A DNA stretch of 21,528 bases, taken from a virus (taxonomy: Duplodnaviria > Heunggongvirae > Uroviricota > Caudoviricetes). A program made the position numbers and the translations under genes. The stretch lies in the IMG/VR virus record IMGVR_UViG_2526164668_000015; one strand, 5' to 3'. The notes under the pieces were generated by a model. The model saw only the letters and a list, made by a program, of their open reading frames with translations, was not told where the DNA came from and searched no databases. Shown piece by piece: positions 2,404 to 21,528 of the stretch (positions within the stretch are counted from its first letter, which is position 1; each line of letters starts with the position of its first letter).

Positions 2404-2408
2404 CCGTT

Positions 2409-3685: not shown

Positions 3686-4555
3686 TTATGACCACTTTTT
3701 GTTTGGGTTTCGTTGGTGAGCGTGGTTTACAGGATTATTTGATATACCCCATAACTCTGACTCGCTTATCTCTACACGAGAGAAAGACCTGCTTTCTTTC
3801 AGTTCTTTTATAAACCTAGAACCTAAGATGACATCTATTGTACCAGAAAGTTCTTGTAAAAGATCTATGTTTTTTCTGAGGAAGAAAATATCTTCTTTAT
3901 ATTTAATTTTTACATAGAATTTATTCTGTATTTTTAATATATCAAAGCATGGCAGATATCTATATCCCTCATATTTTCGCCACTGCTTAACAATTATAAC
4001 ATCTTTTTCATTTACTGCATTAATCAGCCCAAGACCAAGTACAGGTATGAATATTCTATTGTCTGCCGAAAGCGTACAATTATCACCACCAGGCAAATAT
4101 GTATAAATCATGTCGGAATTTTTATACGCATCAACGAATGCACGTAAGAAGCGTACATATTTTTGCCATCCGTTTATACCGAATTTACCATATAAGTATT
4201 CTTTATTTGTTAGAAGAAAACTATTTGTATCAGGATCCTTATCTACAGACCTGTCGATAAGATCTCCAACTACGTTTACAAAGTCAAAGACAGAGTTTAA
4301 TAAGAACAATTGTCTTTCAGTAGGGCGAATTTCAATTATGTAGCCAGGATGAAGACGATATTGCATCTGCTTACGAAGTATACCGAACGCTTGGGTCCGA
4401 GCATCTGAAAGCAACTTCTTGTCGCCATCGCCGTGAGCATTGTTTCTAATAAAACTGATATAATTTGCTAATTTTTCAGCCTCTTTTTTGTGTTTTTTTC
4501 GCTCTGATGCTGAGTCTATTGGTTTTGGTATGGACTTGTAATCAATCTTCTTCAT
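3686..4555 (-). CDS. orphan low-GC protein (289 aa from ATG 4555; 293 aa from ATG 4567); function unknown, candidate exclusion/defence moron with motifs resembling the TnpB N-terminal half
   Basis: Single uninterrupted ORF. The minus-strand junction reads GGC ATG AGG TAC GTA ATG AAG, so the N stop TGA sits inside ATGAGGT and GAGGT gives an RBS 5 nt before the second ATG. The gene is very AT-rich compared with the flanking lambda genes. I recognise no family with confidence. Confidence 0.8.
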   Translation of the reverse strand: MKKIDYKSIPKPIDSASERKKHKKEAEKLANYISFIRNNAHGDGDKKLLSDARTQAFGILRKQMQYRLHPGYIIEIRPTERQLFLLNSVFDFVNVVGDLIDRSVDKDPDTNSFLLTNKEYLYGKFGINGWQKYVRFLRAFVDAYKNSDMIYTYLPGGDNCTLSADNRIFIPVLGLGLINAVNEKDVIIVKQWRKYEGYRYLPCFDILKIQNKFYVKIKYKEDIFFLRKNIDLLQELSGTIDVILGSRFIKELKESRSFSRVEISESELWGISNNPVNHAHQRNPNKKWS

Positions 4556-4563
4556 TACGTACC

Positions 4564-4887
4564 TCATGCCAATGGAATGGATTCCCCTTTAACCTTTTGT
4601 CTTCCTTGACAAGTTATACCGAACTCACCTGGCTTGCTATACCAAACTCGATGATTCTTGCGCTCAATACGTTGCAGGTTGCTTTCAATCTGTTCGTGGT
4701 ATTCAGCCAGCACCGTAAGGTCTATCGGATTCAGTGCGCTTTCTACTCGTGATTTCGGTTTGCGATTCAGCGAGAGAATAGGGCGGTTAACTGGTTTAGC
4801 GCTTACCCCAACCAACAGGGGATTTGCTGCTTTCCATTGAGCCTGTTTCTCTGCGCGACGTTCGCGGCGGCGTGTTTGTGCATCCAT
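4564..4887 (-). CDS. N: antitermination protein N (107 aa)
   Basis: Internal start of track ORF 4564-5019: MDAQTRRRERRAEKQAQWKAANPLLVGVSAKPVNRPILSLNRKPKSRVESALNPIDLTVLAEYHEQIESNLQRIERKN... is lambda N with its arginine-rich motif. The last residues diverge from lambda. Confidence 0.95.
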   Translation of the reverse strand: MDAQTRRRERRAEKQAQWKAANPLLVGVSAKPVNRPILSLNRKPKSRVESALNPIDLTVLAEYHEQIESNLQRIERKNHRVWYSKPGEFGITCQGRQKVKGESIPLA

Positions 4888-5044
4888 CTGGATTCTCCTG
4901 TCAGTTAGCTTTGGTTGTGTGTGGGAGTCGTAGTCCTGAACGAAAACACCCCGCAATGGCACATTGGCAGCTAATCCGGATTCGCACTTCCGGCCAATGC
5001 TTCGTTTCGTATCACACACACCAAAGCCTTCTGCTTTGAATGCT

Positions 5045-5074
5045 GCCCTTCTTCAGGGCTTAATTTTTAAGAGC
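5045..5074 (-). promoter_or_regulatory. nutL (boxA + boxB)
   Basis: The minus strand reads GCTCTTAAAAATTAAGCCCTGAAGAAGGGC. The boxB hairpin GCCCTGAAGAAGGGC lies at 5045-5059 and the boxA-like GCTCTTAAA at 5066-5074. Confidence 0.9.
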
Positions 5075-5115
5075 CTCACCTTCAATGGTGGTCAGTGCGT
5101 CCTGCTGATGGCTTA

Positions 5116-5188
5116 AAATTACAAGGAAGATTGTATGTTGTAAACAAGAAATATTGTAAAAAGGGGCGTGAAAAACAAACTCCATTGT
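5116..5188 (-). promoter_or_regulatory. pL with 434-type operators OL1-OL3
   Basis: Three 14-bp ACAA-N6-TTGT sites: ACAAGGAAGATTGT 5121-5134, ACAAGAAATATTGT 5144-5157 and ACAAACTCCATTGT 5175-5188. On the minus strand, -35 TTTACA (5139-5144), a 17-nt spacer and -10 TAATTT (5116-5121). Confidence 0.85.
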
Positions 5189-5238
5189 TTTTAAACGGAA
5201 AATAGTTTGTTTTTTTGTTATCGAGATTGAGGTGGGGA

Positions 5239-6591
<1,353 letters not shown>

Positions 6592-6599
6592 GACATTCC

Positions 6600-6631
6600 C
6601 GCTCTTACACATCCCAGCCCTGAAAAAGGGC
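6600..6631 (+). promoter_or_regulatory. nutR (boxA CGCTCTTA + boxB)
   Basis: CGCTCTTA at 6600-6607 and boxB GCCCTGAAAAAGGGC at 6617-6631. They are followed by the tR1-region palindrome TGTATGCA...TGCATACA at about 6654-6675. Confidence 0.9.
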
Positions 6632-6710
6632 ATCAAAATAAACCACACCTATGGTGTATGCATTTATTTGCATACATTCAATCAATTGTTATCTAAGGAA
6701 ATACTTACAT

Positions 6711-7004
6711 ATGGTTCGTGCAAACAAACGCAACGAGGCTCTACGAATCGAGAGTGCGTTGCTTAACAAAATCGCAATGCTTGGAACTGAGAAGACAGCG
6801 GAAGCTGTGGGAGTTGATAAGTCGCAGATCAGCAGGTGGAAGAGGGATTGGATTCCAAAGTTCTCAATGCTGCTTGCTGTTCTTGAATGGGGTGTCGTCG
6901 ACGACGACATGGCTCGATTGGCACGACAAGTTGCTTCGATTCTCACCAATAAAAAACGCCCGGCGGCAACCGAGCGTTCTGAACAAATCCAGATGGAATT
7001 CTGA
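6711..7004 (+). CDS. cII: CII transcriptional activator (97 aa)
   Basis: MVRANKRNEALRIESALLNKIAMLGTEKTAEAVGVDKSQISRWKRDWIPKFSMLLAVLEWGVVDDDMARLARQVASILTNKKRPAATERSEQIQMEF is lambda CII. Confidence 0.96.
   Translation: MVRANKRNEALRIESALLNKIAMLGTEKTAEAVGVDKSQISRWKRDWIPKFSMLLAVLEWGVVDDDMARLARQVASILTNKKRPAATERSEQIQMEF
6720..6733 (-). promoter_or_regulatory. pRE CII-binding repeat TTGC-N6-TTGC
   Basis: The minus strand reads TTGCGTTTGTTTGC within the first cII codons, as in lambda pRE. Confidence 0.7.
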
Positions 7005-7026
7005 GGTTATTACTGGAACTATCAAC
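6950..7026 (-). ncRNA. oop: oop antisense RNA (about 77 nt) overlapping the cII 3' end
   Basis: The minus strand reads GTTGATAGTTCCAGTAATAACCTCAGAATTCCATCTGGATTTGTTCAGAACGCTCGGTTGCCGCCGGGCGTTTTTTATT. This is near-identical to my memory of lambda oop and ends in a GC hairpin plus T run. Confidence 0.75.
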
Positions 7027-7036
7027 AGGAGTCATT

Positions 7037-7936
7037 ATGACAAATACAGCAAAAATACTCAACTTCGGCAGAGGTAACTTTGCCGGACAGGAGCGTAATG
7101 TGGCAGATCTCGATGATGGTTACGCCAGACTATCAAATATGCTGCTTGAGGCTTATTCAGGCGCAGATCTGACCAAGCGACAGTTTAAAGTGCTGCTTGC
7201 CATTCTGCGTAAAACCTATGGGTGGAATAAACCAATGGACAGAATCACCGATTCTCAACTTAGCGAGATTACAAAGTTACCTGTCAAACGGTGCAATGAA
7301 GCCAAGTTAGAACTCGTCAGAATGAATATTATCAAGCAGCAAGGCGGCATGTTTGGACCAAATAAAAACATCTCAGAATGGTGTATCCCTCAAAACGAGG
7401 GAAAATCCCCTAAAACGAGGGATAAAACATCCCTCAAATTGGGGGATTGCTATCCCTCAAAACAGGGGAACACAAAAGACACTAATACAAAAGAAAATAG
7501 AAAAGATTATTCGTCAGAGAATTCTGGCGAATCCTCTGACCAGCCAGAAAACGACCTTTCTGTGGTGAAACCTGATGCTGCAATTCAGAGCGGCAGCAAA
7601 TGGGGGACAGCAGAAGACCTGACCGCCGCAGAGTGGATGTTTGACATGGTGAAGACTATCGCGCCATCAGCCAGAAAACCGAATTTTGCAGGGTGGGCTA
7701 ACGATATCCGCCTGATGCGTGAACGTGACGGACGTAACCACCGCGATATGTGTGTGCTGTTCCGCTGGGCCTGCCAGGACAACTTCTGGTCCGGTAATGT
7801 GCTGAGCCCGGCCAAACTCCGCGACAAGTGGACCCAGCTCGAAATCAACCGTAACAAGCAACAGGCAGTCGTGACAGCCAGCAAACCAAAACTCGACCTG
7901 ACAAACACAGACTGGATTTACGGGGTGGATTTATGA
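7037..7936 (+). CDS. O: replication initiator O (299 aa)
   Basis: MTNTAKILNFGRGNFAGQERNVADLDDGYARLSNMLLEAYSGADLTKRQFKVLLAILRKTYGWNKPMDRI... matches lambda O and contains the ori iterons. Confidence 0.96.
   Translation: MTNTAKILNFGRGNFAGQERNVADLDDGYARLSNMLLEAYSGADLTKRQFKVLLAILRKTYGWNKPMDRITDSQLSEITKLPVKRCNEAKLELVRMNIIKQQGGMFGPNKNISEWCIPQNEGKSPKTRDKTSLKLGDCYPSKQGNTKDTNTKENRKDYSSENSGESSDQPENDLSVVKPDAAIQSGSKWGTAEDLTAAEWMFDMVKTIAPSARKPNFAGWANDIRLMRERDGRNHRDMCVLFRWACQDNFWSGNVLSPAKLRDKWTQLEINRNKQQAVVTASKPKLDLTNTDWIYGVDL
7386..7520. repeat. ori-lambda: four O-binding iterons followed by an AT-rich unwinding region
   Basis: Iterons TCCCTCAAAACGAGGGA 7386-7402, TCCCCTAAAACGAGGGA 7406-7422, TCCCTCAAATTGGGGGA 7430-7446 and TCCCTCAAAACAGGGGA 7453-7469. 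They are followed by A-rich ACACAAAAGACACTAATACAAAAGAAAATAGAAAAG. Confidence 0.92.
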
Positions 7937-8634
7937 AAAACATCGCCGCACAGATGGTTAACTTTGACCGTGAGCAGATGCGTCGGATCGCCAACAACAT
8001 GCCGGAACAGTACGACGAAAAGCCTCAGGTACAGCAGGTAGCGCAGATCATCAACGGTGTGTTCAGCCAGTTACTGGCAACTTTCCCGGCGAGCCTGGCT
8101 AACCGTGACCAGAACGAACTGAACGAAATCCGCCGCCAGTGGGTTCTGGCTTTCCGGGAAAACGGGATCACCACAATGGAACAGGTTAACGCAGGAATGC
8201 GCGTAGCCCGTCGGCAGAATCGACCATTTCTGCCATCACCCGGGCAGTTTGTTGCATGGTGCCGGGAAGAAGCATCCGTTATCGCCGGACTGCCAAACGT
8301 CAGCGAGCTGGTTGATATGGTTTACGAGTATTGCCGGAAGCGAGGCCTGTATCCGGATGCGGAGTCTTATCCGTGGAAATCAAACGCGCACTACTGGCTG
8401 GTTACCAACCTGTATCAGAACATGCGGGCCAATGCGCTTACTGATGCGGAATTACGGCGCAAGGCTGCCGATGAACTGTCCTGTATGACCGCACGAATTA
8501 ACCGTGGTGAGGCTATACCTGAACCAGTAAAACAACTTCCTGTCATGGGCGGTAGACCTCTAAATCGTGCACAGGCTCTGGCGAAGATCGCAGAAATCAA
8601 AGCTAAGTTTGGGCTGAAAGGAGCAAGTGTATGA
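7933..8634 (+). CDS. P: replication protein P (DnaB loader, 233 aa)
   Basis: MKNIAAQMVNFDREQMRRIANNMPEQYDEKPQVQQVAQIINGVFSQLLATFPASLANRDQNELNEIRRQW... matches lambda P. ATGA overlap with O. Confidence 0.96.
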   Translation: MKNIAAQMVNFDREQMRRIANNMPEQYDEKPQVQQVAQIINGVFSQLLATFPASLANRDQNELNEIRRQWVLAFRENGITTMEQVNAGMRVARRQNRPFLPSPGQFVAWCREEASVIAGLPNVSELVDMVYEYCRKRGLYPDAESYPWKSNAHYWLVTNLYQNMRANALTDAELRRKAADELSCMTARINRGEAIPEPVKQLPVMGGRPLNRAQALAKIAEIKAKFGLKGASV

Positions 8635-8921
8635 CGGGCAAAGAGGCAATTATTCATTACCTGGGGACGCATAATAGCTTCTGTGCGCCGGACGTTGCCG
8701 CGTTAACAGGCGCAACAGTAACCAGCATAAATCAGGCCGCGGCTAAAATGGCACGGGCAGGTCTTCTGGTTATCGAAGGTAAGGTCTGGCGAACGGTGTA
8801 TTACCGGTTCGCTACTAGGGAAGAACGGGAAGGAAAGATGAGCACGAACCTGATTTTTAAGGAGTGTCGCCAGAGTGCCGCGATGAAACGGGTATTGGCG
8901 GTATATGGAGTTAAAAGATGA
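8631..8921 (+). CDS. ren: Ren (96 aa)
   Basis: MTGKEAIIHYLGTHNSFCAPDVAALTGATVTSINQAAAKMARAGLLVIEGKVWRTVYYRFATREEREGKMSTNL... matches lambda Ren. It overlaps the P stop. Confidence 0.92.
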   Translation: MTGKEAIIHYLGTHNSFCAPDVAALTGATVTSINQAAAKMARAGLLVIEGKVWRTVYYRFATREEREGKMSTNLIFKECRQSAAMKRVLAVYGVKR

Positions 8922-8945
8922 CCATCTACATCACTGAGCTAATAA

Positions 8946-8978
8946 CAGGCCTGCTGGTAATCGCAGGCCTTTTTATTT
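8946..8978 (+). terminator. tR2 intrinsic terminator
   Basis: CAGGCCTGC-TGGTAATC-GCAGGCCT hairpin followed by TTTTTATTT, between ren and ninB as in lambda. Confidence 0.85.
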
Positions 8979-8994
8979 GGGGGAGAGGGAAGTC

Positions 8995-9435
8995 ATGAAA
9001 AAACTAACCTTTGAAATTCGATCTCCAGCACATCAGCAAAACGCTATTCACGCAGTACAGCAAATCCTTCCAGACCCAACCAAACCAATCGTAGTAACCA
9101 TTCAGGAACGCAACCGCAGCTTAGACCAAAACAGGAAGCTATGGGCCTGCTTAGGTGACGTCTCTCGTCAGGTTGAATGGCATGGTCGCTGGCTGGATGC
9201 AGAAAGCTGGAAGTGTGTGTTTACCGCAGCATTAAAGCAGCAGGATGTTGTTCCTAACCTTGCCGGGAATGGCTTTGTGGTAATAGGCCAGCCAACCAGC
9301 AGGATGCGTGTAAGCGAATTTGCGGAGCTATTAGAGCTTATACAGGCATTCGGTACAGAGCGTGGCGTTAAGTGGTCAGACGAAGCGCGACTGGCTCTCG
9401 AATGGAAAGCGCGATGGGGAGATCGGGCTGCATGA
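8995..9435 (+). CDS. ninB: NinB (Orf recombination mediator, 146 aa)
   Basis: Internal ATG of the track ORF: MKKLTFEIRSPAHQQNAIHAVQQILPDPTKPIVVTIQERNRSLDQNRKLWACLGDVSRQVEWHGRWLD... matches lambda NinB. Confidence 0.93.
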   Translation: MKKLTFEIRSPAHQQNAIHAVQQILPDPTKPIVVTIQERNRSLDQNRKLWACLGDVSRQVEWHGRWLDAESWKCVFTAALKQQDVVPNLAGNGFVVIGQPTSRMRVSEFAELLELIQAFGTERGVKWSDEARLALEWKARWGDRAA

Positions 9436-9959
9436 CTATCAAATCAAATACGCCAGCACACGACAAGGACTGCTGGCAAACGCCGCTTTGGCTTTTTGAT
9501 GCACTGGATATTGAGTTTGGATTCTGGCTGGATTCGGCAGCGAGCGACAAAAACGCTCTGTGCGCTCACTGGCTAACTGAGGCTGACGACGCGCTAAATT
9601 CTGAGTGGATAAGCCACGGTGCAATCTGGAATAACCCACCGTACAGCAATATCAGGCCGTGGGTGGAAAAAGCCGCTGAGCAGTGCATACAACAGCGACA
9701 GACGGTAGTGATGCTTGTGCCAGAGGATATGTCTGTCGGATGGTTCAGCAAGGCTCTGGAGAGTGTTGACGAAGTTCGTATTATCACTGATGGACGGATT
9801 AATTTTATCGAACCATCGACAGGGCTGGAGAAGAAGGGAAACAGCAAAGGCTCCATGCTGCTGATTTGGCGACCGTTCATTAGTCCTCGACGGATGTTTA
9901 CTATCGTATCCAAAGCGGCATTGATGGCGATCGGGCAGGGCGTCAGGAGGGCGACATGA
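9432..9959 (+). CDS. phage DNA N6-adenine methyltransferase (Dam-like, NPPY motif), 175 aa
   Basis: Start [31 protein letters not shown] (ATG 9432 overlaps the ninB stop). It has the DxWxTP N-terminal motif and the catalytic NNPPY at IWNNPPYS. It occupies the ninC/ninD slot. Confidence 0.85.
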
Positions 9960-10138
9960 GGCGACAACGACGAAGTTTCACCGACATCATCTGCGAAAAC
10001 TGCAAATACCTTCCAACGAAACGCTCCAGAAATAAACGCAAGCCAATCCCAAAAGAATCTGACGTAAAAACCTTCAACTACACGGCTCACCTGTGGGATA
10101 TCCGGTGGCTAAGACATCGTGCGAGGAATACAAGGTGA
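9956..10138 (+). CDS. ninE: NinE (60 aa)
   Basis: [58 protein letters not shown] matches lambda NinE. Confidence 0.9.
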
Positions 10139-10305
10139 TTGACCCAAATCGAAGTTACGAACAAGAAAGCGTCGAGCGGGCTTTAACGTGCGCTAATTGC
10201 GGTCAGAAGCTGCATGTGCTGGAAGTTCACGTGTGTGAGCACTGCTGTGCAGAGCTGATGAGCGATTCGAATAGCTCGATGCACGAGGAAGAAGATGATG
10301 GCTAA
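10135..10305 (+). CDS. ninF: NinF (56 aa, GTG start overlapping the ninE stop)
   Basis: (V/M)[55 protein letters not shown] matches lambda NinF. The track ORF 10093-10305 extends upstream artificially. Confidence 0.85.
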
Positions 10306-10909
10306 ACCAGCGCGAAGACGATGTAAAAACGATGAATGTCGGGAATGGTTTCACCCTGCATTCGCTAATCAGTGGTGGTGCTCTCCAGAGTGTGGAACCA
10401 AGATAGCACTCGAACGACGAAGTAAAGAACGCGAAAAAGCGGAAAAAGCAGCAGAGAAGAAACGACGACGAGAGGAGCAGAAACAGAAAGATAAACTTAA
10501 GATTCGAAAACTCGCCTTAAAGCCCCGCAGTTACTGGATTAAACAAGCCCAACAAGCCGTAAACGCCTTCATCAGAGAAAGAGACCGCGACTTACCATGT
10601 ATCTCGTGCGGAACGCTCACGTCTGCTCAGTGGGATGCCGGACATTACCGGACAACTGCTGCGGCACCTCAACTCCGATTTGATGAACGCAATATTCACA
10701 AGCAATGCGTGGTGTGCAACCAGCACAAAAGCGGAAATCTCGTTCCGTATCGCGTCGAACTGATTAGCCGCATCGGGCAGGAAGCAGTAGACGAAATCGA
10801 ATCAAACCATAACCGCCATCGCTGGACTGTCGAAGAGTGCAAGGCGATCAAGGCAGAGTACCAACAGAAACTCAAAGACCTGCGAAACAGCAGAAGTGAG
10901 GCTGCATGA
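10295..10909 (+). CDS. ninG: NinG (Rap structure-specific endonuclease, 204 aa)
   Basis: [64 protein letters not shown]... matches lambda NinG. Confidence 0.93.
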
Positions 10910-11571
10910 ATATCTACGAAAGAATTGATGGCAGCAAATACCGAAATATTTGGGTAGCTGGCGACCTGCACGGATGCTACACGAACCTGATGAACAAACT
11001 GGATACGATTGGATTCGACACCAAAAAAGACCTGCTCATCTCGGTTGGCGATTTGGTTGATCGCGGTACAGAGAACGTCGAATGTCTGGAATTAATCACA
11101 TTCCCCTGGTTCAGAGCTGTGCGTGGAAACCATGAGCAAATGATGATTGATGGCTTATCAGAGCGTGGAAACGTTAATCACTGGCTGCTTAATGGCGGTG
11201 GCTGGTTCTTTAATCTCGATTACGACAAAGAGACTCTGGCTAAAGTTCTTGCCCATAAAGCAGAAGAACTTCCGTTAATCATCGAACTGGTGAGCAAAGA
11301 TAAAAAATATGTCATTTGCCACGCCGATTATCCTTGTGATAAATACGAGTTTGGAAAGCCAGTTGATCATCAGCAGGTAATCTGGAACCGCGAACGAATC
11401 AGCAACTCACAAGACGGGATCGTGAAAGAAATCAAAGGCGCGGACACGTTCATCTTTGGTCATACGCCAGCAGTGAAACCACTCAAATTTGCCAACCAGA
11501 TGTATATCGATACTGGCGCAGTGTTCTGCGGAAACCTCACATTGATTCAGGTACAGGGAGAAGGCGCATGA
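10906..11571 (+). CDS. ninI: lambda Ser/Thr protein phosphatase (NinI, 221 aa); ninH is absent
   Basis: Contains the metallophosphatase motifs GDLHGC, GDLVDRG and GNHE. Length and sequence match the lambda phosphatase. ATGA overlap with ninG. Confidence 0.93.
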
Positions 11572-11657
11572 GACTCGAAAGCGTAGCTAAATTTCATTCG
11601 CCAAAAAGCCCGATGATGAGCGACTCACTACTGGCCACAGTTTATTGGTTTTCGTAA
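11568..11657 (+). pseudogene. Q: 5' remnant of lambda-type antiterminator Q (about 24 of 207 codons)
   Basis: ATG 11568 overlaps the ninI stop as in lambda. [20 protein letters not shown] matches the lambda Q N-terminus. The sequence then diverges (LLATVYWFS) and stops at 11655-11657. Confidence 0.8.
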
Positions 11658-11782
11658 CTGAGTCATTTTATTATTTTATTGCAACTTTTAATCTTTTATA
11701 GTGCGAAATAAATGGAGCTGGCATTCATTTCGCACTTTATGTTTTTGTTGGACTTATGTTATTTTGATTGAATTCAATTCAG

Positions 11783-12742
11783 TTAAAAAAAGAAGGTGAT
11801 TGCTCCATTTATAAATGAATAGTCATCCCCTGTCTTGAATTCTGATGTTACTTTATTAAATGCTAGTGTGAAGGCTACAGGTGCATACCCAATTGTTGCG
11901 CCAACTTGATATTCATCAACAGTTTTGTTTAGCGATACTGTTGTTTGTTTCGTCTGTATTGTTTTTCCTTCGAGAGTATAGTTGCGATTGACATCTCGTC
12001 TTTCCATACCTGCAAAAATCTTGTATTTGAATCCGCTTGTATCGGACATATGCATTAAACCACGGGGAGCCAGCAGACCAAAGCCATTATCCGAATTGAA
12101 GGTTTTATCATTACCAATGGCAATGGTTGCGCCATATGCTACATATTGAAATAAGTTTCCAGTAACAGCAGAAACTTCAGGGTATAATCCAACATTAGCA
12201 CCTAAAATATCCATACTTGGTGTCATGGATAGCATCCCTTTTACAGTATAACCGTAGCGATTCTCTATTTGATCATCCCATGCATGATATTTTTCTGCCC
12301 CAATAATCTCATGAGCTTTATTTTGTACTTTCTGACCGCCTGCGTCGGGGCCAACAACACCTATGTCAGTACCTAATCGATAGCGAATCCAGTCATTCGC
12401 AAGGGAGTTCCATTCAATACCAGTGTGAGTGTATGCACTAAAAGCTCTGTCTCCAGTTACAGCTGTGTTGTGTCTTTTATTACTGCCTGATGGAGAGTAA
12501 ATATCTTGCGCAATATGGAGAGATAATTGGCTCGAGTCTGAGATATCGTGGCTATATCCCAGAAATAAGCCTTGTGAGTAATCATCTCTGTTTTCATGTT
12601 TATTGCCATAAATATCATTAAGTATTGGTTGAAACTTCCCTGCATCATCATTTGCTAATGATAATGCAAGGCTGTTCGCGATAGCTGAACACGTGGTAAA
12701 TGACAGAGCAATAAAGACGCCAGCGATGACACTTTTTTTCAT
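11783..12742 (-). CDS. lpxR: LpxR-family outer-membrane lipid A 3'-O-deacylase (319 aa)
   Basis: Signal peptide MKKSVIAGVFIALSFTTCSAIA and the C-terminal beta-barrel signature ...GAITFFF. If cleaved after AIA, the mature protein starts NSLALSLANDD and has N9-D10, S34, Q118 and H122, which fits my recollection of the Salmonella LpxR active-site numbering. AT-rich moron on the opposite strand. Confidence 0.7.
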   Translation of the reverse strand: MKKSVIAGVFIALSFTTCSAIANSLALSLANDDAGKFQPILNDIYGNKHENRDDYSQGLFLGYSHDISDSSQLSLHIAQDIYSPSGSNKRHNTAVTGDRAFSAYTHTGIEWNSLANDWIRYRLGTDIGVVGPDAGGQKVQNKAHEIIGAEKYHAWDDQIENRYGYTVKGMLSMTPSMDILGANVGLYPEVSAVTGNLFQYVAYGATIAIGNDKTFNSDNGFGLLAPRGLMHMSDTSGFKYKIFAGMERRDVNRNYTLEGKTIQTKQTTVSLNKTVDEYQVGATIGYAPVAFTLAFNKVTSEFKTGDDYSFINGAITFFF

Positions 12743-13216
12743 ATGTTATTGTCTTCCTTTTTTTTGAATGGTGCGCGTATTTTACATACATGAGTTTGTA
12801 ATACAAGGTGCGTAATCAATATGATGTTTTATAATTGCGTGAGACAATTGATTTATTCGTTTTTTATTGCGGTTTTTATTATCTTTTAATGTAACGGTGT
12901 TTTTATTAAGTGTGTTTGCGTGGTGTTTTATGTTTTTTATAATTTTTATTTTATTAAATTTAAATGCATTAGTAATGGCTATTCTATATAGCAATATAAG
13001 AACTGTTACAAAAAAAGGGGGGCAATTACAGGTAGTTATGGATGATGAGTGAAACAGATATTGGAGAACCGGGGAATGAATGATGTCTGAGTCTTATATA
13101 TCAGAACTCCTTCGCTGTCGCTGGGGGCTCCTGTGCTTATGTCGTTTCCCCGATTCGGTTTTGAACGATTACCGAATGTTGAAGAATTATGCCAAAATAT
13201 AGAAAGGATTTACTGC

Positions 13217-13906
13217 ATGAATACCCAATATTTACAGTATGTTCGTGAGCAACTTATGGCAGCTACTGCTGACTTGAACGGAGCAACGAAAGGCCAGCTC
13301 GAAGCCTGGCAGGAGCATGCACAATTTGATACTGGTACATACAAACGAAAGAAGCTGCGCATTCTGGATGTGGTAACTGGCAAGATGATTACGCTGGATA
13401 ATACGCCGACTTCCGGTAAGCAGTCGTACGCAAAAGGTTCATCCATTGCTTTGGTCAGCCCGGTTGAATTCTCAACCTCTTCATGGCGCCGCGCGGTTTT
13501 GTCTCTCGATGAACATCAGAAAGCATGGTTGCTTTGGTGTTACAGCGAAAGCGTTCGATGGGGGCATCAGGTCACCATAACGCAATGGGCATGGAGCGAG
13601 TTTAAAGATTTGTTAAGTAACAGAAAAATTGCAGGTAAGACACTGGATCGCCTGAAGACGTTAATCTGGCTGGCTGCACAGGATGTGAAGAGCGAACTTG
13701 CAGGGCGTGAGGCCTATGAATACCAGACACTGGCATCATTGGTGGGAGTGACAACAAAAAACTGGTCCGAGACATTTACTGAACGCTGGGTTGCAATGAA
13801 GCACATTTTTCTACAGCTTGATAGTGATGCTTTATTGCTTGTGACGAGAACACGTTCAAAACAAAAGGCAGCATTTTTACAGCAAAATATTGCAAAACTG
13901 GATTAA
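13217..13906 (+). CDS. putative late antiterminator Q, non-lambda type (229 aa)
   Basis: ATG 13217 is preceded by AAAGGA. MNTQYLQYVREQLMAATADLNGATKGQLEAWQEH... resembles Q-homologue annotations of E. coli lambdoid prophages, from memory and unverified. A near-consensus promoter and a short terminated leader follow immediately, as expected for a Q/pR'/tR' module. Confidence 0.55.
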   Translation: MNTQYLQYVREQLMAATADLNGATKGQLEAWQEHAQFDTGTYKRKKLRILDVVTGKMITLDNTPTSGKQSYAKGSSIALVSPVEFSTSSWRRAVLSLDEHQKAWLLWCYSESVRWGHQVTITQWAWSEFKDLLSNRKIAGKTLDRLKTLIWLAAQDVKSELAGREAYEYQTLASLVGVTTKNWSETFTERWVAMKHIFLQLDSDALLLVTRTRSKQKAAFLQQNIAKLD

Positions 13907-13918
13907 AAGCCATATACT
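13890..13918 (+). promoter_or_regulatory. pR'-like late promoter
   Basis: -35 TTGCAA 13890-13895, a 17-nt spacer and -10 TATACT 13913-13918, overlapping the end of the Q-like gene. A -10-like TATGTT lies in the initially transcribed region and may be a sigma-dependent pause element. Confidence 0.65.
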
Positions 13919-13952
13919 TCATGCAAATTTGGTATGTTGTAAAAAATGTATA

Positions 13953-13979
13953 AACCCGCTGCCGAGTGGGTTTTTTTTA
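13953..13979 (+). terminator. tR'-like intrinsic terminator ending a leader transcript of about 55 nt
   Basis: CCCGCT-GCCG-AGTGGG hairpin (one G-U pair) followed by T8 at 13971-13978. Confidence 0.75.
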
Positions 13980-14117
13980 TGCCCTGAGTTGTACTTGTAC
14001 GGTAAACATGCTGGCTGCTATGTAATAGAGTTTTTTTAGCCTGTAACCTCTTGACGGCATTGAATTGCTTTTGTTATGAGTTGTAAGCCAATGTTATCAT
14101 CTTGTATTGGGGTGGTT

Positions 14118-14595
14118 ATGAAGGATGGTGCGCTGCTCAGGAGTTCTTCACTTTTTATTGCCTACATGGGATGCCTTGGATGGGGGAGTGCTTATTTCTA
14201 TGGATGGGGTACTTCTTTTTACTACGGCTTCCCATGGTGGATTGTAGGTGCAGGTGTTGATGATGTTGCCAGAAGTTTATTTTTTTGCAGTTATCGTCAT
14301 TGCTATATTTCTTATCGGTTGGGGTATTGGTGTTGTATTCTTTTTCGCAGTGAAAAGAAAACATTCTATGCAAGAGCTAAATGTATTTCGCCTTTATTTT
14401 GCTGTGGAATTATTGTTTGTGCCGGCAATTATTGAGTTTTCTATATTGAGACAGAAGATTCAGGTACCTCTTTTGCTACTGTCAGCAGCGATTGCGCTGG
14501 CGGTTACAATTTCGATAAGATCTTATGGGCGATTTTTATCGGTATCATGCTTCTATGATAAGCCATTTATAAAAAACATTTTTTTGAGATTGTGA
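14118..14595 (+). pseudogene. AT-rich polytopic membrane protein gene split by a frameshift at a T7 tract (14280-14286)
   Basis: ORF 14076-14435 is plausible only up to ...GVDDVARSLFF, then becomes Cys/Tyr/Arg-rich nonsense. ORF 14248-14595 continues with convincing TM segments (FAVIVIAIFLIGWGIGVVFFFAV...). Removing one T from the T7 run joins them. The likely start is MKDGALL at 14118, after GGGGTGG. Confidence 0.55.
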
Positions 14596-14834
14596 TGATT
14601 GCTTTTGTGGCATATTTTTGGCTTTTTTCATTTCTGACAGGATATTACAAACCACAGTTTAAGAAAGAATATGAAATGATTAATTATAATGATGGTTGGT
14701 ATTATGTTCTTGCTCGTTATGATAATTGTCTGGTTTTGTCTACTTCTTTCAATGCAGGTAGTAAAAGGTTTGTCATTTATCAATCAGCACAAGATAAGAA
14801 TCTTCAGGTTGATATTGTAAGGACCAGAATTTAA
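14592..14834 (+). CDS. small membrane-anchored protein (79-80 aa), possibly the C-terminal part of the preceding gene
   Basis: GTG 14592 or ATG 14595 overlaps the upstream stop (GTGATGA). It has an N-terminal TM segment IAFVAYFWLFSFLTGYY followed by a soluble beta-rich tail. One extra T in the T7 run 14579-14585 would fuse it in frame to the upstream ORF. Confidence 0.5.
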   Translation: MMIAFVAYFWLFSFLTGYYKPQFKKEYEMINYNDGWYYVLARYDNCLVLSTSFNAGSKRFVIYQSAQDKNLQVDIVRTRI

Positions 14835-15124
14835 TTGGCTGCATAAATAATATTTTAAGTTGCAAGTTGGCTATTCGTAGGAATAGAACCTTAGGCATGC
14901 TGAATGCGTTTTCTGAACATTGTTTTATAAACTGTGTCTGCTTGCTGTTGTGATCCTGCTTTTAGTGATGGTGATGATGGATTTCACCAGCAGGATAATG
15001 TTGGTACTGACTGATGGCGCTCTGGTCTGCGGCATTGTGGTATTGCTGTGGCCGATGATGAAAGAACAGGTGATGCTGCCAACTTACTGATTTAGTGTAT
15101 GATGGTGTTTTTTGAGGTGCTCCA

Positions 15125-15400
15125 GTGGCTTCTGTTTCTATCAGCTGTCCCTCCTGTTCAGCTACTGACGGGGTGGTGCGTAACGGCAAAAGCACCGCCG
15201 GACATCAGCGCTATCTCTGCTCTCACTGCCGTAAAACATGGCAACTGCAGTTCACTTACACCGCTTCTCAACCCGGTACGCACCAGAAAATCATTGATAT
15301 GGCCATGAATGGCGTTGGATGCCGGGCAACTGCCCGCATTATGGGCGTTGGCCTCAACACGATTTTACGTCACTTAAAAAACTCAGGCCGCAGTCGGTAA
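15125..15400 (+). CDS. insA: IS1 InsA (91 aa)
   Basis: [91 protein letters not shown] is canonical InsA. Confidence 0.95.
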
Positions 15401-15822
15401 CCTCGCGCATACAGCCGGGCAGTGACGTCATCGTCTGCGCGGAAATGGACGAACAGTGGGGCTATGTCGGGGCTAAATCGCGCCAGCGCTGGCTGTTTTA
15501 CGCGTATGACAGTCTCCGGAAGACGGTTGTTGCGCACGTATTCGGTGAACGCACTATGGCGACGCTGGGGCGTCTTATGAGCCTGCTGTCACCCTTTGAC
15601 GTGGTGATATGGATGACGGATGGCTGGCCGCTGTATGAATCCCGCCTGAAGGGAAAGCTGCACGTAATCAGCAAGCGATATACGCAGCGAATTGAGCGGC
15701 ATAACCTGAATCTGAGGCAGCACCTGGCACGGCTGGGACGGAAGTCGCTGTCGTTCTCAAAATCGGTGGAGCTGCATGACAAAGTCATCGGGCATTATCT
15801 GAACATAAAACACTATCAATAA
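15319..15822 (+). CDS. insB: IS1 InsB frame (167 aa; transposase InsAB' is made by a -1 frameshift at TTAAAAAAC 15374-15382)
   Basis: ...[71 protein letters not shown]... is canonical InsB. The A6 slippery run is present. Confidence 0.93.
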
Positions 15823-16581
15823 GTTGGAGTCATTACCAGTACCTTGTAGCCTTTATTTGCAGGATATAAAGGTAAAAACTCGGTTAATAATGGGTCAGGA
15901 CCTTTAATAGTTGTAAACTTGAACAAAATGACGTTAATATTATTAACGTAGATGATATTATCAGAACAACCTTCTTGCCATCCATTTTATCGCATTCAAA
16001 CATTATAAATGTACTTAGTATTATTCATAAATGATATCAAGATGGCACCTTAACCTTCACCCAAACGACGTTAACCAAATAAAAGAAAGTTAAGATGCCA
16101 TCGAAATATCATTAATTGCTGCATATCCTTTATCATACAATAACAAATGTTCTCCTTATTGTTTTTTTGTGCATCCCTGCTTTTAATATTTACATGCAAT
16201 GGAAAAACAGTATATGGAGAGAACTTTTCCGCAAAACATTTTCATATCCTACGCTCCTGAAATATAACAGATCCACTCAGACATAAATCGCAAAAAATTC
16301 AAGGTTAACGTAAAATGTAAAAAACTTAGCGTAACTAATATTGGTTTACCTTCGTTACTGTAAATACGCCAACATAGCATAGATAATCAATGAGGTATAG
16401 TCTGTTTATGAGAATTAATTTATAAAAACAAGTGAATAACAATGGAGAATTAATCCTTGCAGCTTATGAGTTTGTGAAGCAATTGGGAAAGAAAAATATA
16501 AATGATGTGAAAAAAAATAATTATTCGTCTTACCAATGCACTCGAGACTACTGATCCTACCCACGTAATGTGGACACGGCC

Positions 16582-17435
16582 CTAAGCGAGATTATGGTTT
16601 TCAAATTGTTCCGGGCTGAGACCGCCACAGGCACTGTGACGACGCCAGCGATTGTAATCACACTCGATATAATTAAACACCGTTGCCCGCATTATTTCCC
16701 GGCTGCTAAAGCGTTCCCCGTGGATACATTCCACCTTCAGCGAATGAAAGAAGCTTTCCACACAGGCATTGTATAACAGTAGCCTTTCGCACTCATACTG
16801 CCACGCAGGTTGTGTCGCTTCAGCAGCGCCTGATAATCCCCTGAACAGTATTGACCACCACGGTCCGTATGAACAATGACGCTTTCCGGGCGTCTTCTCC
16901 GCCACAACGCCATTTGCAGTGCATCACAGGCCAGTTGTGCTGTCATTCGCGGTGACATCGACCAGCCAATAACGGCGCGTGACCACAGGTCGATGACTAC
17001 TGCGAGATACAACCAGCCCTCATCGGTACGCAAGTACGTGATGTCACCCGCCCACTTCTGGTTCGGGCCGCTGGCGCTGAAGTCCTGCTCCAGCAGATTC
17101 TCCAATACGGGCAGGCCATGTGCACGGTAGCTGACCGGGCTGAACTTCCGGCTGGCTTTCGCCCGCAGCCCCTGACGACGCAGGCTGGCGGCAATGGTTT
17201 TAATATTGAACTCCGGCAGTTCGTCAGCAAGGCGGGGAGCACCGTATCGCTGCTTTGCCTCAAAGAATGCCTTATGGACAGCGGCATCGCAGGTGAGCCG
17301 AAACTGTTGGCGCAGGCTCATCTGGTGACGACGCCTGAGCCAGACATACCAGCCGCTGCGGGCAACCCGAAGTACACGACACATCGCTTTGATGCTGAAC
17401 TCTGCCCGATGATTTTCGATGAAGACATACTTCAT
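16582..17435 (-). pseudogene. IS3-family OrfB (DDE transposase) with a frameshift
   Basis: ORF 16737-17435 matches IS3 InsF up to ...SMSAKGYCY. The rest ([62 protein letters not shown]) lies in the frame of ORF 16582-16905. TGTTATACAATGCC instead of the expected TGTTATGACAATGCC suggests a 1-bp deletion. Confidence 0.85.
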
Positions 17436-17731
17436 TTCAGGCGCTTCGCGAAGTATGTCGCGGCCTTTTGGAGGATGGCCAGTTCCTCAGCCTGCTCCGC
17501 CAGTTGTCGTTTAAGGCGGACATTTTCAGCGGCCAGTTCGCTTTCGCGCTCTGACGAACTCATTTGTTGCTGCTGTTTACTGCGCCAGGCATAAAGCTGG
17601 GATTCATACAGGCTGAGTTCACGGGCTGCGGCGGCCACACCGATGCGTTCAGCGAGTTTCAGGGCTTCGTTACGAAATTCAGGCGTATGTTGTTTACGGG
17701 GCTTCTTGCTGATTGATACTGGTTTTGTCAT
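17432..17731 (-). CDS. IS3-family OrfA (99 aa, HTH plus leucine zipper)
   Basis: [56 protein letters not shown]...[16 protein letters not shown] closely resembles E. coli IS3 InsE. Confidence 0.92.
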
Positions 17732-18049
17732 GAGTCACCTCTGGTTGAGAGTTTACTCACTTAGTCCTGTGTCCACTATTGGTGGGTAAGATCATAAATA
17801 CCCATTCAATACGCTGTATGGCCGCTGAAAGAACATTTTCTTCCGCTATGACTTTTTGTGTACCTCTCATACATAGCCCTGATAAAGCATTCTGATTTAA
17901 CTTTCTGTCAAATACGAGGCAACCAGTCCGTAATCAACCACACAACAAACCAGAACCCCATCATCAGAATCAAATACTCCATGATGACTGAAATACTTAT
18001 TTTCATATCATTACCGCACCCTGATAATATTCAGTACAGAATTATCCCA

Positions 18050-18847
18050 TTACTGATACTCAATACTCACTGGCAGGGACACATTCCAGCGTTCTGTTTT
18101 ATCTCCCCACAGATGTAATTCGCCGGTGTCAGCAATAGTCCGGGCACCATAAACACCTTCAATCTGGCGAAGAGCAGTATCGCTGAAATGGCTTACGCCT
18201 GTCTCTGAACTTACTGACATCGTCGGCAACCACCCCGGACCTTCACCATCAAACATTGACTGCAGTAATCCGGGAATCTGCTCTGTGTTCAGAACATGGG
18301 ACTTATCAGGCAGACCGTTTCCCCCTACATCATCATATATACTGGTATAAGTAACCTGACCGTTACTTACATGCCGCATAAGTCCTGCCGCCTGCATACG
18401 AAACGTAAAATGACCAATCCGATGGCTATCTTCCCCCGTAACAGGCAATGTAACATCTGCAACTCCTGGTGTGGCCCACACCAGAGAAAAATCCTCAATA
18501 CCTTTTCCGAATATAATTCGGGGAGCCAGCCCCTCACGTCCGGCAGGTGTGGTAAGAACTGTTTTTCCCAGTACAAGATTCATGGCAGGCAAAGAAACAG
18601 GAACCACCGTATCTCCACTACGTGAAACCGGAGAATGTTTGACATTCAGGTTTGACTTCCCTTCTCCTATCTTCCACACCCAGGGATTACGGGTACTGGT
18701 TACTGGACCGCCCAGTTTAAGTTCACCACTGAAATCCTGACCGGGTGTATTCCAGGCCAGAACACTGAATGGAAAAAAACAAACAATCAGAAATAACAAA
18801 ACAGAATTCTTCACATTTTTCTCCACTATTGTTTCCCTGCCATTCAT
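18050..18847 (-). CDS. FaeI-like minor fimbrial subunit (FaeG paralogue), about 265 aa
   Basis: The start [31 protein letters not shown] (ATG 18845-18847) overlaps the upstream stop. [23 protein letters not shown] parallels the FaeG N-terminal motif. The C-terminal pilin strand is [12 protein letters not shown]. Confidence 0.8.
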
Positions 18848-19620
18848 TGCACAGTAACCGTAACATTCAGTTTTGCCTGCCACTGAGCAGGTGTCCCTTC
18901 TGCCGGAAGGTGTAATTCAAAATCAGACACAGAAGATGCATAAGCAGCGGCAAGATTTTTGACTCTGCCATCCGCAAGAATCCCCTGACTGATAACCTGC
19001 CCGTTATCCACTGCGCTCATTCCACCACCAAATTTCTGATTCATCAGCAACAATGAAGATAAACGGTTCTTCAGTTCTTGAGGTAAACTACCGGACTGAA
19101 CATTCGTCACACTCTGTCCACTAACCAGTGACATCCCCGCAGGTACCGATACGCCATCCTCCTGGACACCAGTACTGACAGCCATCCCCTGATCAAGGGT
19201 AAAATAAAGTTGCCCTGTCACCTGACCATTTTCAGGATCACTTACCGGGACAGAAGCACGAAAATGTTGTGCAGTGGCACTGTTTCCGTCTGTTACCGTA
19301 AAAGGCTGACCATTACTACTGAACGTGATAAAAGGCGTAAAACCAGGACCACCGCGCTCTGCCACTTCGAACAGATGCCCCTCAAGAAATGGTAATGAAC
19401 CTTTATCATGCAAATCAAAAATAAGCTGCCCATTCTCTGTTAGGGCATCAGCTGTATCCACGGCCCAAGTCTGTCCGGATGAACCTATCTGCCAAGTCCA
19501 TTTAGGTGCCTCATCAGTAACAAAACCATGAAACTGGATTTCACCACCATCAAGGCGCTCAGCATATAATTTCATTGAACATAAAAGAACACATCCAAAA
19601 AGAAAAAAGAATAACAACAA
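18844..19620 (-). CDS. FaeH-like minor fimbrial subunit (FaeG paralogue); the 5' end is apparently frameshifted or uses a TTG start
   Basis: [27 protein letters not shown] and the C-terminal [10 protein letters not shown] fit the FaeG/H/I family. The only ATG with a strong RBS (AGGAG 8 nt upstream, ATG 19632-19634) is out of frame with the ORF. Confidence 0.75.
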
Positions 19621-19758
19621 CGAACTAAATTCATGCTATTTACTCCTCATCCTTTAAAACAGAAGTCGGATGTATCGTTTTTGGAATAACACTCTCACTA
19701 TAAAACAGTGAGAGTGTTACAAATAATAAATGGTTTCTACTTATTTAAGTTCTGTGCA

Positions 19759-20622
19759 TTAATTGTATGCAACAGTAACATTAAGTGGAATTGACCAATT
19801 GGTTGTATGAGTGACTTTCTGTGTAAAGGTTAAATCAATTTTACTTCCGTTGACTAAACCGAACCCCATACCTGTAGCTGCAGTTGACATTTTTTCAATA
19901 TTAAATCTACTGTTCGCCTCATTTGGGGTTAAAGATTGCATCCATCCCTGATCAGCCCAGTTAGTAACTTGACCTACTCGTCCTTGGAGCTCAGAAACCA
20001 AATCAGACATTCCTAATTGGTTAAGAATATCTTCGGCTGTATCAATATCTGTAGCCTGGTGATTTCCACCAACAAGTCCCGCATATAACGAAGTAGAAAC
20101 ATTGTAATTATCAGAAACGACCAATTTAATACCAGTATCACCACTATCTGGAGTACCATACATCACACCTGCTACACGCGCATCTGTAATTTTTGCCGTA
20201 CCAACAGCTTGGCTATCAGCGTAAACTGGCACACTAAAATCAAACCCTCCATTGTTATTCCAGTTAGTACGAGAGATTTGAATACCATCACCACCACTAA
20301 CAACTACACTCGGCATAACACCTTTAGAATAACTATCAGCAGAATAAATCCCCTTAGTTTTTATAGCCAGAACAGGAATAGCTTCCTGAACAGGCAAAGA
20401 TAATTCGTTACCATTTACCAAGTCGGTACCATTATTAGCGAAATTAGTATAACCACTCCCTGTGGCAACCAGCCATACAGGAGTATCATCTACAGTAATT
20501 GTACCTCCAATAGAAACGGATCCTCCTGCAGAATTTTCCTCCCAAGCACCTAAACCAGCCATAGCAGAACCGGATACCGCAGTAGAGGCAACTACCGCAA
20601 GTGCAATCAACGTCTTTTTCAT
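19759..20622 (-). CDS. FaeG-like major fimbrial subunit/adhesin of a K88 (F4)-family fimbria (287 aa)
   Basis: The N-terminus MKKTLIALAVVAS..., GSVSIGGTITVDD and the C-terminus LTFTQKVTHTTNWSIPLNVTVAYN parallel K88 FaeG (MKKTLIALAIAAS, GSVDIGGSITADD, ATFNQAVTTSTQWSAPLNVAITYY) as I recall it. Confidence 0.88.
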   Translation of the reverse strand: MKKTLIALAVVASTAVSGSAMAGLGAWEENSAGGSVSIGGTITVDDTPVWLVATGSGYTNFANNGTDLVNGNELSLPVQEAIPVLAIKTKGIYSADSYSKGVMPSVVVSGGDGIQISRTNWNNNGGFDFSVPVYADSQAVGTAKITDARVAGVMYGTPDSGDTGIKLVVSDNYNVSTSLYAGLVGGNHQATDIDTAEDILNQLGMSDLVSELQGRVGQVTNWADQGWMQSLTPNEANSRFNIEKMSTAATGMGFGLVNGSKIDLTFTQKVTHTTNWSIPLNVTVAYN

Positions 20623-20843
20623 AAGTTTAATTCCTTCCAGTATATATATTTTATATAGCTGGTAACCCCGTCACAGAATTACCGCAAACCCATCCCTGAA
20701 CAATATATATAAATGTTGCCACATGTATGAATAGTGCAAAACAGAATGGGTTTACGTTATTCCCGTAAAAGCCAACCCTTTACCGCGAAATTATTCAGCG
20801 GACTTCAGTGAATTTATAAAACACAGAATGCAAATACTGATTT

Positions 20844-21335
20844 TTAATTAACGCCCTCCACCTGTAATGCAATCTGAATATTTCCGCGATAATTCACGGG
20901 AATTTCCAGGTCAGCCGGCACATCTGAACGTAACTCAACCTGTTTTTGTGCGTCCGGCACCGTTATCAGAACATCCTCGCCCTGCTGACTGGCATTCAGT
21001 ACAGCCTTTTGCCCATCCACCACCAGGGACGTTTTCAGGGTGATTCTGGCTTCCTGGTTATCCGGTAATACCTGCTTTACTGTGATATAAGCCATACCAC
21101 CGGATGCCGGACGGACTTCTGCATCACGAACCCGTAACTGTACCGGCAATGCATCATCACTCCGGTACAGTACCGGGTCAGTGGGGGTCCGGGTGACTTT
21201 CACCACGCTGTTCCCCACCACCTGACCATTCACCACCCCCAGATATTGCGTTTTCTCACTGTATTCATTTGCATGAACCCCCTGAAAACCGAATGCAGTA
21301 AACAGCAGGCCAGCTATCATCATTTTCTTTTTCAT
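20844..21335 (-). CDS. FaeF-like minor fimbrial subunit (163 aa)
   Basis: Signal peptide MKKKMMIAGLLFTAFGFQGVHA and RBS GGGGAG. It is the same length as FaeF and lies between the chaperone and the major subunit. The C-terminal strand is NIQIALQVEGVN. Confidence 0.75.
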   Translation of the reverse strand: MKKKMMIAGLLFTAFGFQGVHANEYSEKTQYLGVVNGQVVGNSVVKVTRTPTDPVLYRSDDALPVQLRVRDAEVRPASGGMAYITVKQVLPDNQEARITLKTSLVVDGQKAVLNASQQGEDVLITVPDAQKQVELRSDVPADLEIPVNYRGNIQIALQVEGVN

Positions 21336-21377
21336 TTAACTCCCCTTCTGTTCTGTACTCCGGTACGGCGGGATTGA

Positions 21378-21528
21378 TTACGCTGCACTTTTCTGAGGTT
21401 GGACATTTTCATCAACGTTCGTCCCTGCCGTGGATTTCTTCTGATTAATCGTCCAGGTTTTCAGGTCACCATAATCATCCAGGGATTCCACTTTCACCAC
21501 ATTTCCCTTCACCTGCACTTCATCTCCT
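21378..21528 (-). CDS. 3' end of a periplasmic fimbrial chaperone gene (FaeE-like); the 5' part lies beyond the window
   Basis: Hand-translated minus-strand frame open from the window edge: GDEVQVKGNVVKVESLDDYGDLKTWTINQKKSTAGTNVDENVQPQKSAA, with the stop at 21378-21380. Assigned by its position upstream of the faeF-like gene. Confidence 0.6.
   Translation of the reverse strand, partial: GDEVQVKGNVVKVESLDDYGDLKTWTINQKKSTAGTNVDENVQPQKSAA

Follow-up and report, generated by a model that had tools for sequence, protein, structure and literature searches.

The window analysed here is the whole 21,528-nucleotide stretch of viral (Caudoviricetes) DNA held in IMG/VR as record IMGVR_UViG_2526164668_000015. 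Judged by its open reading frames (ORFs) and Pfam families, the minus strand of positions 18050-21528 holds the distal half of a fimbrial operon of the chaperone-usher type, kappa class (F4/K88 family). The gene of the major subunit is called G in the following, and its neighbours are named F, H and I after their fae counterparts. The operon tail consists of the following genes:

21378..21528, minus strand: 3' end of a faeE-like periplasmic chaperone gene (49 final codons and the stop codon at 21378-21527), cut by the end of the window

20844..21335, minus strand: FaeF-like minor subunit of 163 amino acids (aa), Pfam DUF5462, E=1.2e-63

19759..20622, minus strand: FaeG-like major subunit and presumed adhesin of 287 aa (WP_000751773.1, annotated as 'hypothetical protein')

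18844..19635, minus strand: FaeH-like minor subunit, frameshifted near codon 10 in the window, Pfam Fimbrial_K88, E=3.7e-74

18050..18814, minus strand: FaeI-like subunit of 254 aa with a GTG start, Pfam Fimbrial_K88, E=2.7e-69

The Pfam E-values lie far past chance, so that the operon tail is no chance pattern. The major subunit covers the full Fimbrial_K88 profile (PF02432) with E=1.5e-28 and 100.4 bits at a cut-off of 26.2, and the order chaperone, FaeF-like, G, FaeH-like and FaeI-like is the order of the K88 reference locus (pUMNK88_K88). In kappa-class operons, as a rule, a single gene for a major adhesin subunit takes the central place (PMC12050912), and by ORFs and Pfam families the window genes show exactly this layout. 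A preliminary description of this DNA had already reported four minus-strand genes and a chaperone 3' end in the fae order E-F-G-H-I; all of these are in place, and the four genes are backed by Pfam, but it overlooked the frameshift in the H-like gene (as read in the window, this ORF spans 18844-19620 on the minus strand). The motifs it gave for the major subunit, MKKTLIALA, GSVSIGGTITVDD and NWSIPLNVTVAYN, are all present in the translation. For the FaeI-like gene, a longer ORF reaches 18883; the GTG start used here is homologous to the start of K88 FaeI, and the Prokaryotic Genome Annotation Pipeline (PGAP) uses the same start in an identical plasmid. The chaperone gene is the annotated faeE of a 99.97%-identical plasmid, and its C-terminus is 98% identical to FaeE of plasmid pDEC9B-1, 82% to FaeE of the F41 plasmid and 86% to K88 FaeE over 28 aa. 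A scan of the five proteins against NCBIfam gave zero matches and thus no curated equivalog name.

By sequence identity, the closest relative of this operon is the F41 operon and not K88, to which the preliminary description had likened it without singling out F41. A 3.7-kb region was compared with 5,426 complete Escherichia coli genomes. Four plasmids are 99.9-100% identical, pDEC9B-1 and NZ_CP128591 show 86.8% DNA identity over the 3.7-kb region, and two F41 plasmids show 91.7% identity, over 73% of it only. With blastn, the F41 plasmid aligns to 17796-19553 (91.9%) and 20563-21524 (91.5%) with nothing between, and the identity per 100 bp across this gap is 31-47%. The gap and the identities of the encoded proteins are as follows:

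19553..20563, no strand given: segment of about 1 kb replaced relative to the F41 operon (blastn gap)

F protein: 96% identical to the F41 operon, 96% to pDEC9B-1 and 72% to K88

G protein: 31% identical to the F41 operon, 60% to pDEC9B-1 and 30% to K88ac FaeG

H protein, mature part: 83% identical to the F41 operon, 93% to pDEC9B-1 and 76% to K88

I protein: 90% identical to the F41 operon, 89% to pDEC9B-1 and 62% to K88

The replaced segment consists of the G gene without the codons of its signal peptide, the spacer between G and H, and the codons of the H signal peptide. At the DNA level, the G gene is matched by other F4-family genes over its first ~74 nt only, which is consistent with a junction just past the G signal-peptide codons. 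These alignments show the G gene as a different, unnamed allele class, brought in by recombination as a cassette onto a conserved assembly platform, and they place the recombination junctions in the signal-peptide codons of G and of the next gene, H.

A relative of G with 286 aa and 49% identity (P0008 type; GCA_005387045.1, contig BFQJ01000007.1) belongs to another F4-family backbone, whose regulator is of the PapB type and whose chaperone has 251 aa. The G allele clade is thus not bound to the platform of F41.

Next, we consider the major subunit itself. In successive 30-residue blocks, it is 57, 47, 40, 27, 27, 20, 20, 13, 33 and 53% identical to K88ac FaeG, in line with the preliminary claim of conserved N- and C-terminal ends (57% and 53%) around a divergent centre (minimum 13%). 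In a search of 5.8 billion proteins, including NCBI nr and UniRef, G was followed after its own 90% cluster by a clade with 49-58% identity (representatives P0002-P0009, the pDEC9B-1-type allele among them), while all remaining matches reached at most 34%; a match labelled F41 was 31% identical. A neighbour-joining tree places the window G inside a clade of 10 representatives. The 36 members of the G cluster carry the labels 'hypothetical protein', 'F4 family fimbrial subunit' or an automatic 'K88 ... AC'. Near-identity to LdaG, RalG, ClpG or CshE (of LDA, Ral/AF-R2, CS31A and CS13, respectively) was not found in this search, which sets these four apart indirectly, by database search and labels. 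The proposal of a variant, divergent adhesin thus held up when near-identity to a characterised fimbria was looked for, with at most 34% identity outside its own clade.

An AlphaFold model of G based on 63 homologues reached a predicted local distance difference test score (pLDDT) of 86.9 and a predicted template modelling score (pTM) of 0.80; its two helices, 193-202 and 206-216, align with those of FaeG. The only significant PDB matches found with Foldseek were 18 FaeG chains (E 1e-17 to 6e-14, template modelling (TM) score 0.68-0.83, 20-24% identity). G is accordingly predicted to have the FaeG fold, an immunoglobulin (Ig)-like core carrying a grafted receptor-binding subdomain of two strands and two helices. 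In FaeG, the subdomain that is grafted onto the Ig-like core is built of two short strands and two helices; it holds the lactose site and accounts for most of the variation among F4ab, F4ac and F4ad (PMC4337312).

No named description matching the window type emerged from a literature search on fimbriae like F4, F41 or K88 and on the RefSeq accessions. Two recently described systems were considered and rejected as the same fimbria: the 'novel F4-like fimbriae' of a hybrid between Shiga toxin-producing and enterotoxigenic E. coli (Michelacci et al. 2018), whose adhesin is described as CS31A-like (PMC8753484), and F4-O169 (FayG1/G2), which differs in architecture (PMC12050912).

By homology with F4, the encoded fimbria would most likely work as follows. 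The FaeE-like chaperone would capture subunits in the periplasm, and the FaeD-like usher would polymerise the 287-aa subunit into thin fibrillae via its N-terminal donor strand GSVSIGGTITV, with the FaeF-like and FaeH-like proteins as putative minor subunits. The major subunit would at the same time be the adhesin and would bind a host glycan via the two-helix subdomain on its Ig-like core. F4 itself uses its major subunit as the adhesin, with specificity located in the grafted subdomain (PMC4337312, PMC12442223). A different explanation is that the divergent G is mainly an antigenic variant that serves immune escape, with receptor recognition unchanged or located on another subunit; antibody selection would likewise give variation confined to surface-exposed parts of a major pilin. 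We regard this as unlikely: besides the location of adhesin and specificity in F4 (PMC4337312; PMC12442223), the central blocks match FaeG or F41 at only 13-27% of residues, so that an identical binding site is hardly to be expected, and F41, K88 and CS31A belong to the same family and differ in their ligands (PMC12442223).

The natural variation of G bears on the same question. Between the window and 20 related loci, chosen by exact G or FaeF identity (21 sequences, 3.5 kb), the polymorphisms come down to four sites in G, all of them non-synonymous, and the indel of the window itself. Among the listed members of the 90% cluster, the variable positions are 173, 188, 194, 198, 211, 225 and 239, which all fall within 173-239. 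This region makes up 23% of G, and an even spread would place all seven there with a probability of about 0.233^7, or 4e-5. Position 173 is Y, N or A and position 188 is H, N or Q; all four Y/N x H/N combinations exist, which indicates recurrent mutation or recombination. The alleles of G are common, with 119, 50, 48, 29 and 15 contigs. In FaeGad, galactose is contacted by Phe150-Glu152 and Val166-Glu170 (PMC12442223). A four-way alignment puts residue 173 two positions past the counterpart of FaeG 150-152 and residue 188 within the counterpart of FaeG 166-170. This pattern of variation fits selection on a receptor-binding or antigenic surface. Since the subdomain is unlike that of FaeG and F41 and the variants cluster at positions aligned with the FaeGad pocket, the fimbria probably has a receptor specificity and a serotype of its own. 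A more far-reaching version, which we put forward tentatively and would not call the likelier outcome, is that of an unnamed cattle-associated serotype with a new glycan specificity that arose by a cassette swap onto the F41 platform, with residues 173 and 188 under recurrent positive selection. If true, receptor choice would still be being tuned, or host antibody escaped, in a commensal bovine E. coli population.

A further element of the replaced segment is a hairpin behind the G gene:

19687..19719, minus strand: perfect 15-bp stem-loop lacking a U-tract, directly downstream of the G stop codon

The RNA of the G-H spacer folds with a minimum free energy of -29.7 kcal/mol (z = -4.0), and 0 of 200 shuffled sequences were as stable. 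A canonical intrinsic terminator was looked for past the G gene and not found. Strong hairpins occupy the same position in the F41 (locus L002, 5686-5806), K88 (L013, 7784-7959) and pDEC9B-1 (L014, 10837-10969) operons. The pDEC9B-1 stem is similar to that of the window, while the F41 and K88 stems are unrelated to it in sequence. By analogy with other fimbrial operons, we infer that the hairpin may act as an attenuator or as an mRNA stabiliser favouring the major subunit, and it would thereby help to keep this subunit in excess over the others.

Downstream of the operon, the window holds the following features, up to a copy of the insertion sequence (IS) IS1:

17795..18049, no strand given: spacer of 255 bp without faeJ, ending at the FaeI-like stop at 18050

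16552..17794, minus strand: IS3-family element, ISEc16-like, 1243 bp, with 39-nt terminal inverted repeats

15070..15838, no strand given: IS1 copy with inverted repeats, its outer end being the break between plasmid and prophage sequence

A search with K88 FaeJ (tblastn) gave a best E-value of 0.51 in the window, compared with 2e-173 for the self-match of the K88 control, which bears out the preliminary statement that faeJ is missing; the IS3-like element, which it had placed about 255 bp downstream, is exactly 255 bp away. A FaeJ homologue was likewise not found by tblastn in the F41-type or pDEC9B-1 plasmids, so that the lack of faeJ characterises this sub-lineage and is not an effect of the IS. 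In both kinds of plasmid, the operon runs directly into a PAPS-reductase gene. By homology to the F41 plasmid, the start of this gene, about 25 codons, survives in the window at 17796-17870 on the minus strand. The ISEc16-like element has ORFs of 99, 232 and 107 aa and is annotated as 'ISEc16 family transposase, frameshifted' in an identical plasmid. In addition to the usual programmed frameshift, its orfB is broken into ORFs of 232 and 107 aa that overlap; this holds for the identical plasmids too, and the element is probably defective. The 713-bp stretch between IS1 and the IS3-family element (15839-16551) is unannotated and kept in all related plasmids; at 16027-16116 it holds an imperfect inverted repeat of 32 nt.

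The frameshift in the FaeH-like gene requires separate consideration. The window has six T at 19603-19608, whereas all 20 related loci have seven, which gives an intact ORF of 263 aa. With six T, the ATG at 19633 and its GGAG ribosome-binding site are out of frame with the mature FaeH-like sequence, and the sole remaining in-frame start is a TTG that lies 22 nt from this Shine-Dalgarno-like GGAG. Positions 15069-21528 of the window are 99.97% identical to plasmid A of cow strain C7, NZ_CP010241, and positions 1-15069 match, at 99.9% identity, a lambdoid prophage that complete E. coli chromosomes carry beside ybhC. Over 6.46 kb, the window differs from the C7 plasmid at two sites, both of them homopolymer indels, one being an extra T in the conserved IS1 end. 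From the closest prophage it differs at ten sites, eight of which are single-base homopolymer indels; two indels 20 bp apart truncate the conserved bet gene. The differences from the nearest references, nearly all single-base homopolymer indels, lie at:

347, 412, 433, 1841, 1861, 13016, 14280, 14570, 15108 and 19602

This signature suggests an error-prone assembly, and any frameshift in the window is to be distrusted. The frameshift of the FaeH-like gene is very probably a sequencing error. FaeH is needed for K88 fimbrial biogenesis, and Bakker et al. in 1992 reportedly saw far fewer fimbriae in K88 faeH mutants. If the deletion were real, the window might hold a decaying or silent operon that assembles poorly and was carried along as a passenger of an IS-mediated rearrangement. 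A mature FaeH frame cut off from the ATG at 19633 and from the ribosome-binding site would fit such decay, as would the adjoining defective IS3-family element and IS1 and the truncated PAPS-reductase gene downstream. We consider this quite improbable: the seven T of every related locus, the homopolymer nature of both plasmid and most prophage differences and the broken bet gene are the mark of sequencing error, and the other genes of the operon tail show no defect. A slipped-strand phase-variation switch, with the window caught in the OFF state, was also considered as the main explanation, given that the homopolymer of seven T lies at the very start of the gene and the window is one unit off, and was rejected. 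The T-run shows no change in length in 20 independent assemblies, seven T are short for efficient slippage, and the same window has the extra T in the IS1 end and many other homopolymer indels; we hold such a switch to be extremely unlikely.

The boundary between the two parts of the window lies at the IS1 element. Plasmid homology ends exactly at the IS1 outer end (15069/15070), and the IS1 has inserted into a DUF3927 gene, 9 bp short of its end; this site lies just downstream of the prophage region that holds the Q antiterminator. Reference prophages continue with the last 9 bp of DUF3927 and then the late/lysis region, in place of which the window has plasmid sequence. This plasmid/prophage junction was found in 0 of the 5,426 complete genomes. 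The module of FaeI, 255 bp, ISEc16-like element, 713 bp and IS1 is kept in all related loci, and homology stops at the same IS1 end. Beyond this end we find at least four kinds of neighbours, namely tra genes, IncFII rep/parE-relB, type VI secretion system (T6SS) genes and, in the window, the prophage (related loci L001 and L003-L008), which marks it as a real rearrangement hot spot. The window is thus either an IS1-mediated plasmid-chromosome cointegrate or an assembly chimera across the repeated IS1. The chimera, to which we give somewhat less than an even chance, would account for the breakpoint exactly at the IS1 end, the absence of the junction from the complete genomes and the many homopolymer errors. 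However, the same IS1 end has other neighbours in finished plasmids and in another assembly, which makes rearrangement by IS1 real, and the homopolymer errors suggest long reads, which would normally span an IS of 768 bp. The question touches the context of the operon only and not the operon itself. The preliminary description placed the operon next to IS elements and a prophage; the prophage neighbourhood is no property of the operon, as the break at 15069/15070 makes clear. The prophage itself carries exo/bet/gam, N, cI-like, O/P and nin genes and Q, and as cargo between the nin region and Q a gene for the lipid A deacylase LpxR (11783-12742, minus strand).

The usual home of the operon, as shown by the related loci, is IncFII/FIB plasmids of cattle-associated E. 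coli. Among public assemblies, 251 indexed blocks contain the exact G protein and 597 the exact FaeF-like protein, and all five finished replicons with the exact G come from cows, cattle faeces or the farm environment. The FaeC-like gene, the usher and the chaperone are intact in the 99.97%-identical plasmid and in 19 other loci, the window itself holding the last 49 chaperone codons. A disrupted upstream operon, which the preliminary description had named as a finding that would speak against it, was thus not found: FaeC-like gene, usher, chaperone and AraC-type regulator are intact on the near-identical plasmids. Its 'IS-bounded island' has to be abandoned, as IS elements lie on one side only and the other flank is plasmid backbone in all related loci. 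This flank comprises a PapB-like regulator remnant, an integrase and the RepFIB replication gene.

The regulator upstream of the operon is of the AraC family with a GyrI-like domain and is divergently transcribed (C7 plasmid, L001 27582-28508; L003-L012). Further upstream on the near-identical plasmids, a PapB-like gene and a partial fimbrial gene are remnants of another fimbrial locus. In the 42 kb of plasmid A of C7 that were inspected, no annotated toxin or enterotoxin genes were found. At L001 35880-39701, the same plasmid also encodes an annotated 'anti-phage transmembrane ATPase', a number of toxin-antitoxin pairs and colicin Ia, the last by a degraded gene.

Altogether, the best explanation, which we consider likely, is that of a kappa-class operon tail with an F41 assembly platform and a swapped G cassette, working in the manner of F4 with a distinct specificity and at home on cattle plasmids. 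Several points weigh against it. The window does not reach the usher, the remainder of the chaperone or the regulator, whose integrity is deduced from near-identical plasmids. The FaeH-like gene is frameshifted in the window, and this copy may express poorly if the deletion is real. The polymorphism count comes from a biased sample owing to the way in which the related loci were chosen, and the pocket alignment, at about 20% identity in that region, may be off by a few residues. Finally, the fimbria is known here from its genes, and its assembly and binding are those predicted by homology with F4.

What remains is a real, complete-looking, widespread and unnamed member of the F4/K88 family, ordinary in kind and without a new mechanism. 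F4-family fimbriae determine the tropism of intestinal E. coli for hosts and tissues, and they serve as vaccine antigens. The fimbria is of interest as a candidate bovine colonisation factor, which could escape typing schemes for F4, F5, F17, F41 and CS31A.

In comparison with known systems, the F4 (K88) fae operon shares with the window the E-F-G-H-I order, the Pfam families, the conserved donor-strand and C-terminal motifs and the FaeG fold with its grafted two-helix subdomain, predicted on the side of the window. K88 differs in having faeJ and in its source, the pig, as opposed to cattle for the window type. The regulators differ as well, being AraC-type on the near-identical plasmids and annotated as 'adhesin biosynthesis transcription regulatory family protein' at the K88 locus. 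With a G only 30% identical to FaeGac and no FaeJ homologue, the window type does not belong to F4 (K88) proper. The CS31A-like fimbria of Michelacci et al. and F4-O169 resemble it in being recently described non-classical kappa-class fimbriae of E. coli. Another likeness is found in bovine mastitis strain VL2874, for which one sentence of a genome study mentions 'F4-like fimbriae' on an FII plasmid as a plasmid-derived region (PMC4556653). Its FaeI falls into the same 90%-identity cluster as the FaeI-like protein of the window, and the likeness is one of FaeI.

The F41 operon (pF2_407_2_2-1 = NZ_CP074757; NZ_CP074821) agrees with the window type in its AraC-type regulator, FaeC-like gene, usher, chaperone, DUF5462/FaeF-like gene, major subunit, FaeH-like and FaeI-like genes, and both are without faeJ. 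It differs in a G of 277 aa as compared with 287 aa in the window, where in addition the signal peptide of the H gene is replaced and the PAPS-reductase gene downstream is cut by the IS. The window type thus has the assembly genes of F41 and lacks the F41 major subunit that defines the antigen. The pDEC9B-1 allele (WP_048227849.1; also on plasmid NZ_CP128591) shares the backbone and a subunit of 287 aa and forms the closest clade in the neighbour-joining tree, but its G is only 60% identical, its PAPS-reductase neighbourhood is intact, and it is annotated as hypothetical and is uncharacterised. A near-identical platform hence carries at least three very different adhesin cassettes, those of F41, of the window type and of the pDEC9B-1 type. 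Together with the variants at the predicted sugar pocket, this shared platform offers a natural swap series for the evolution of receptor specificity.

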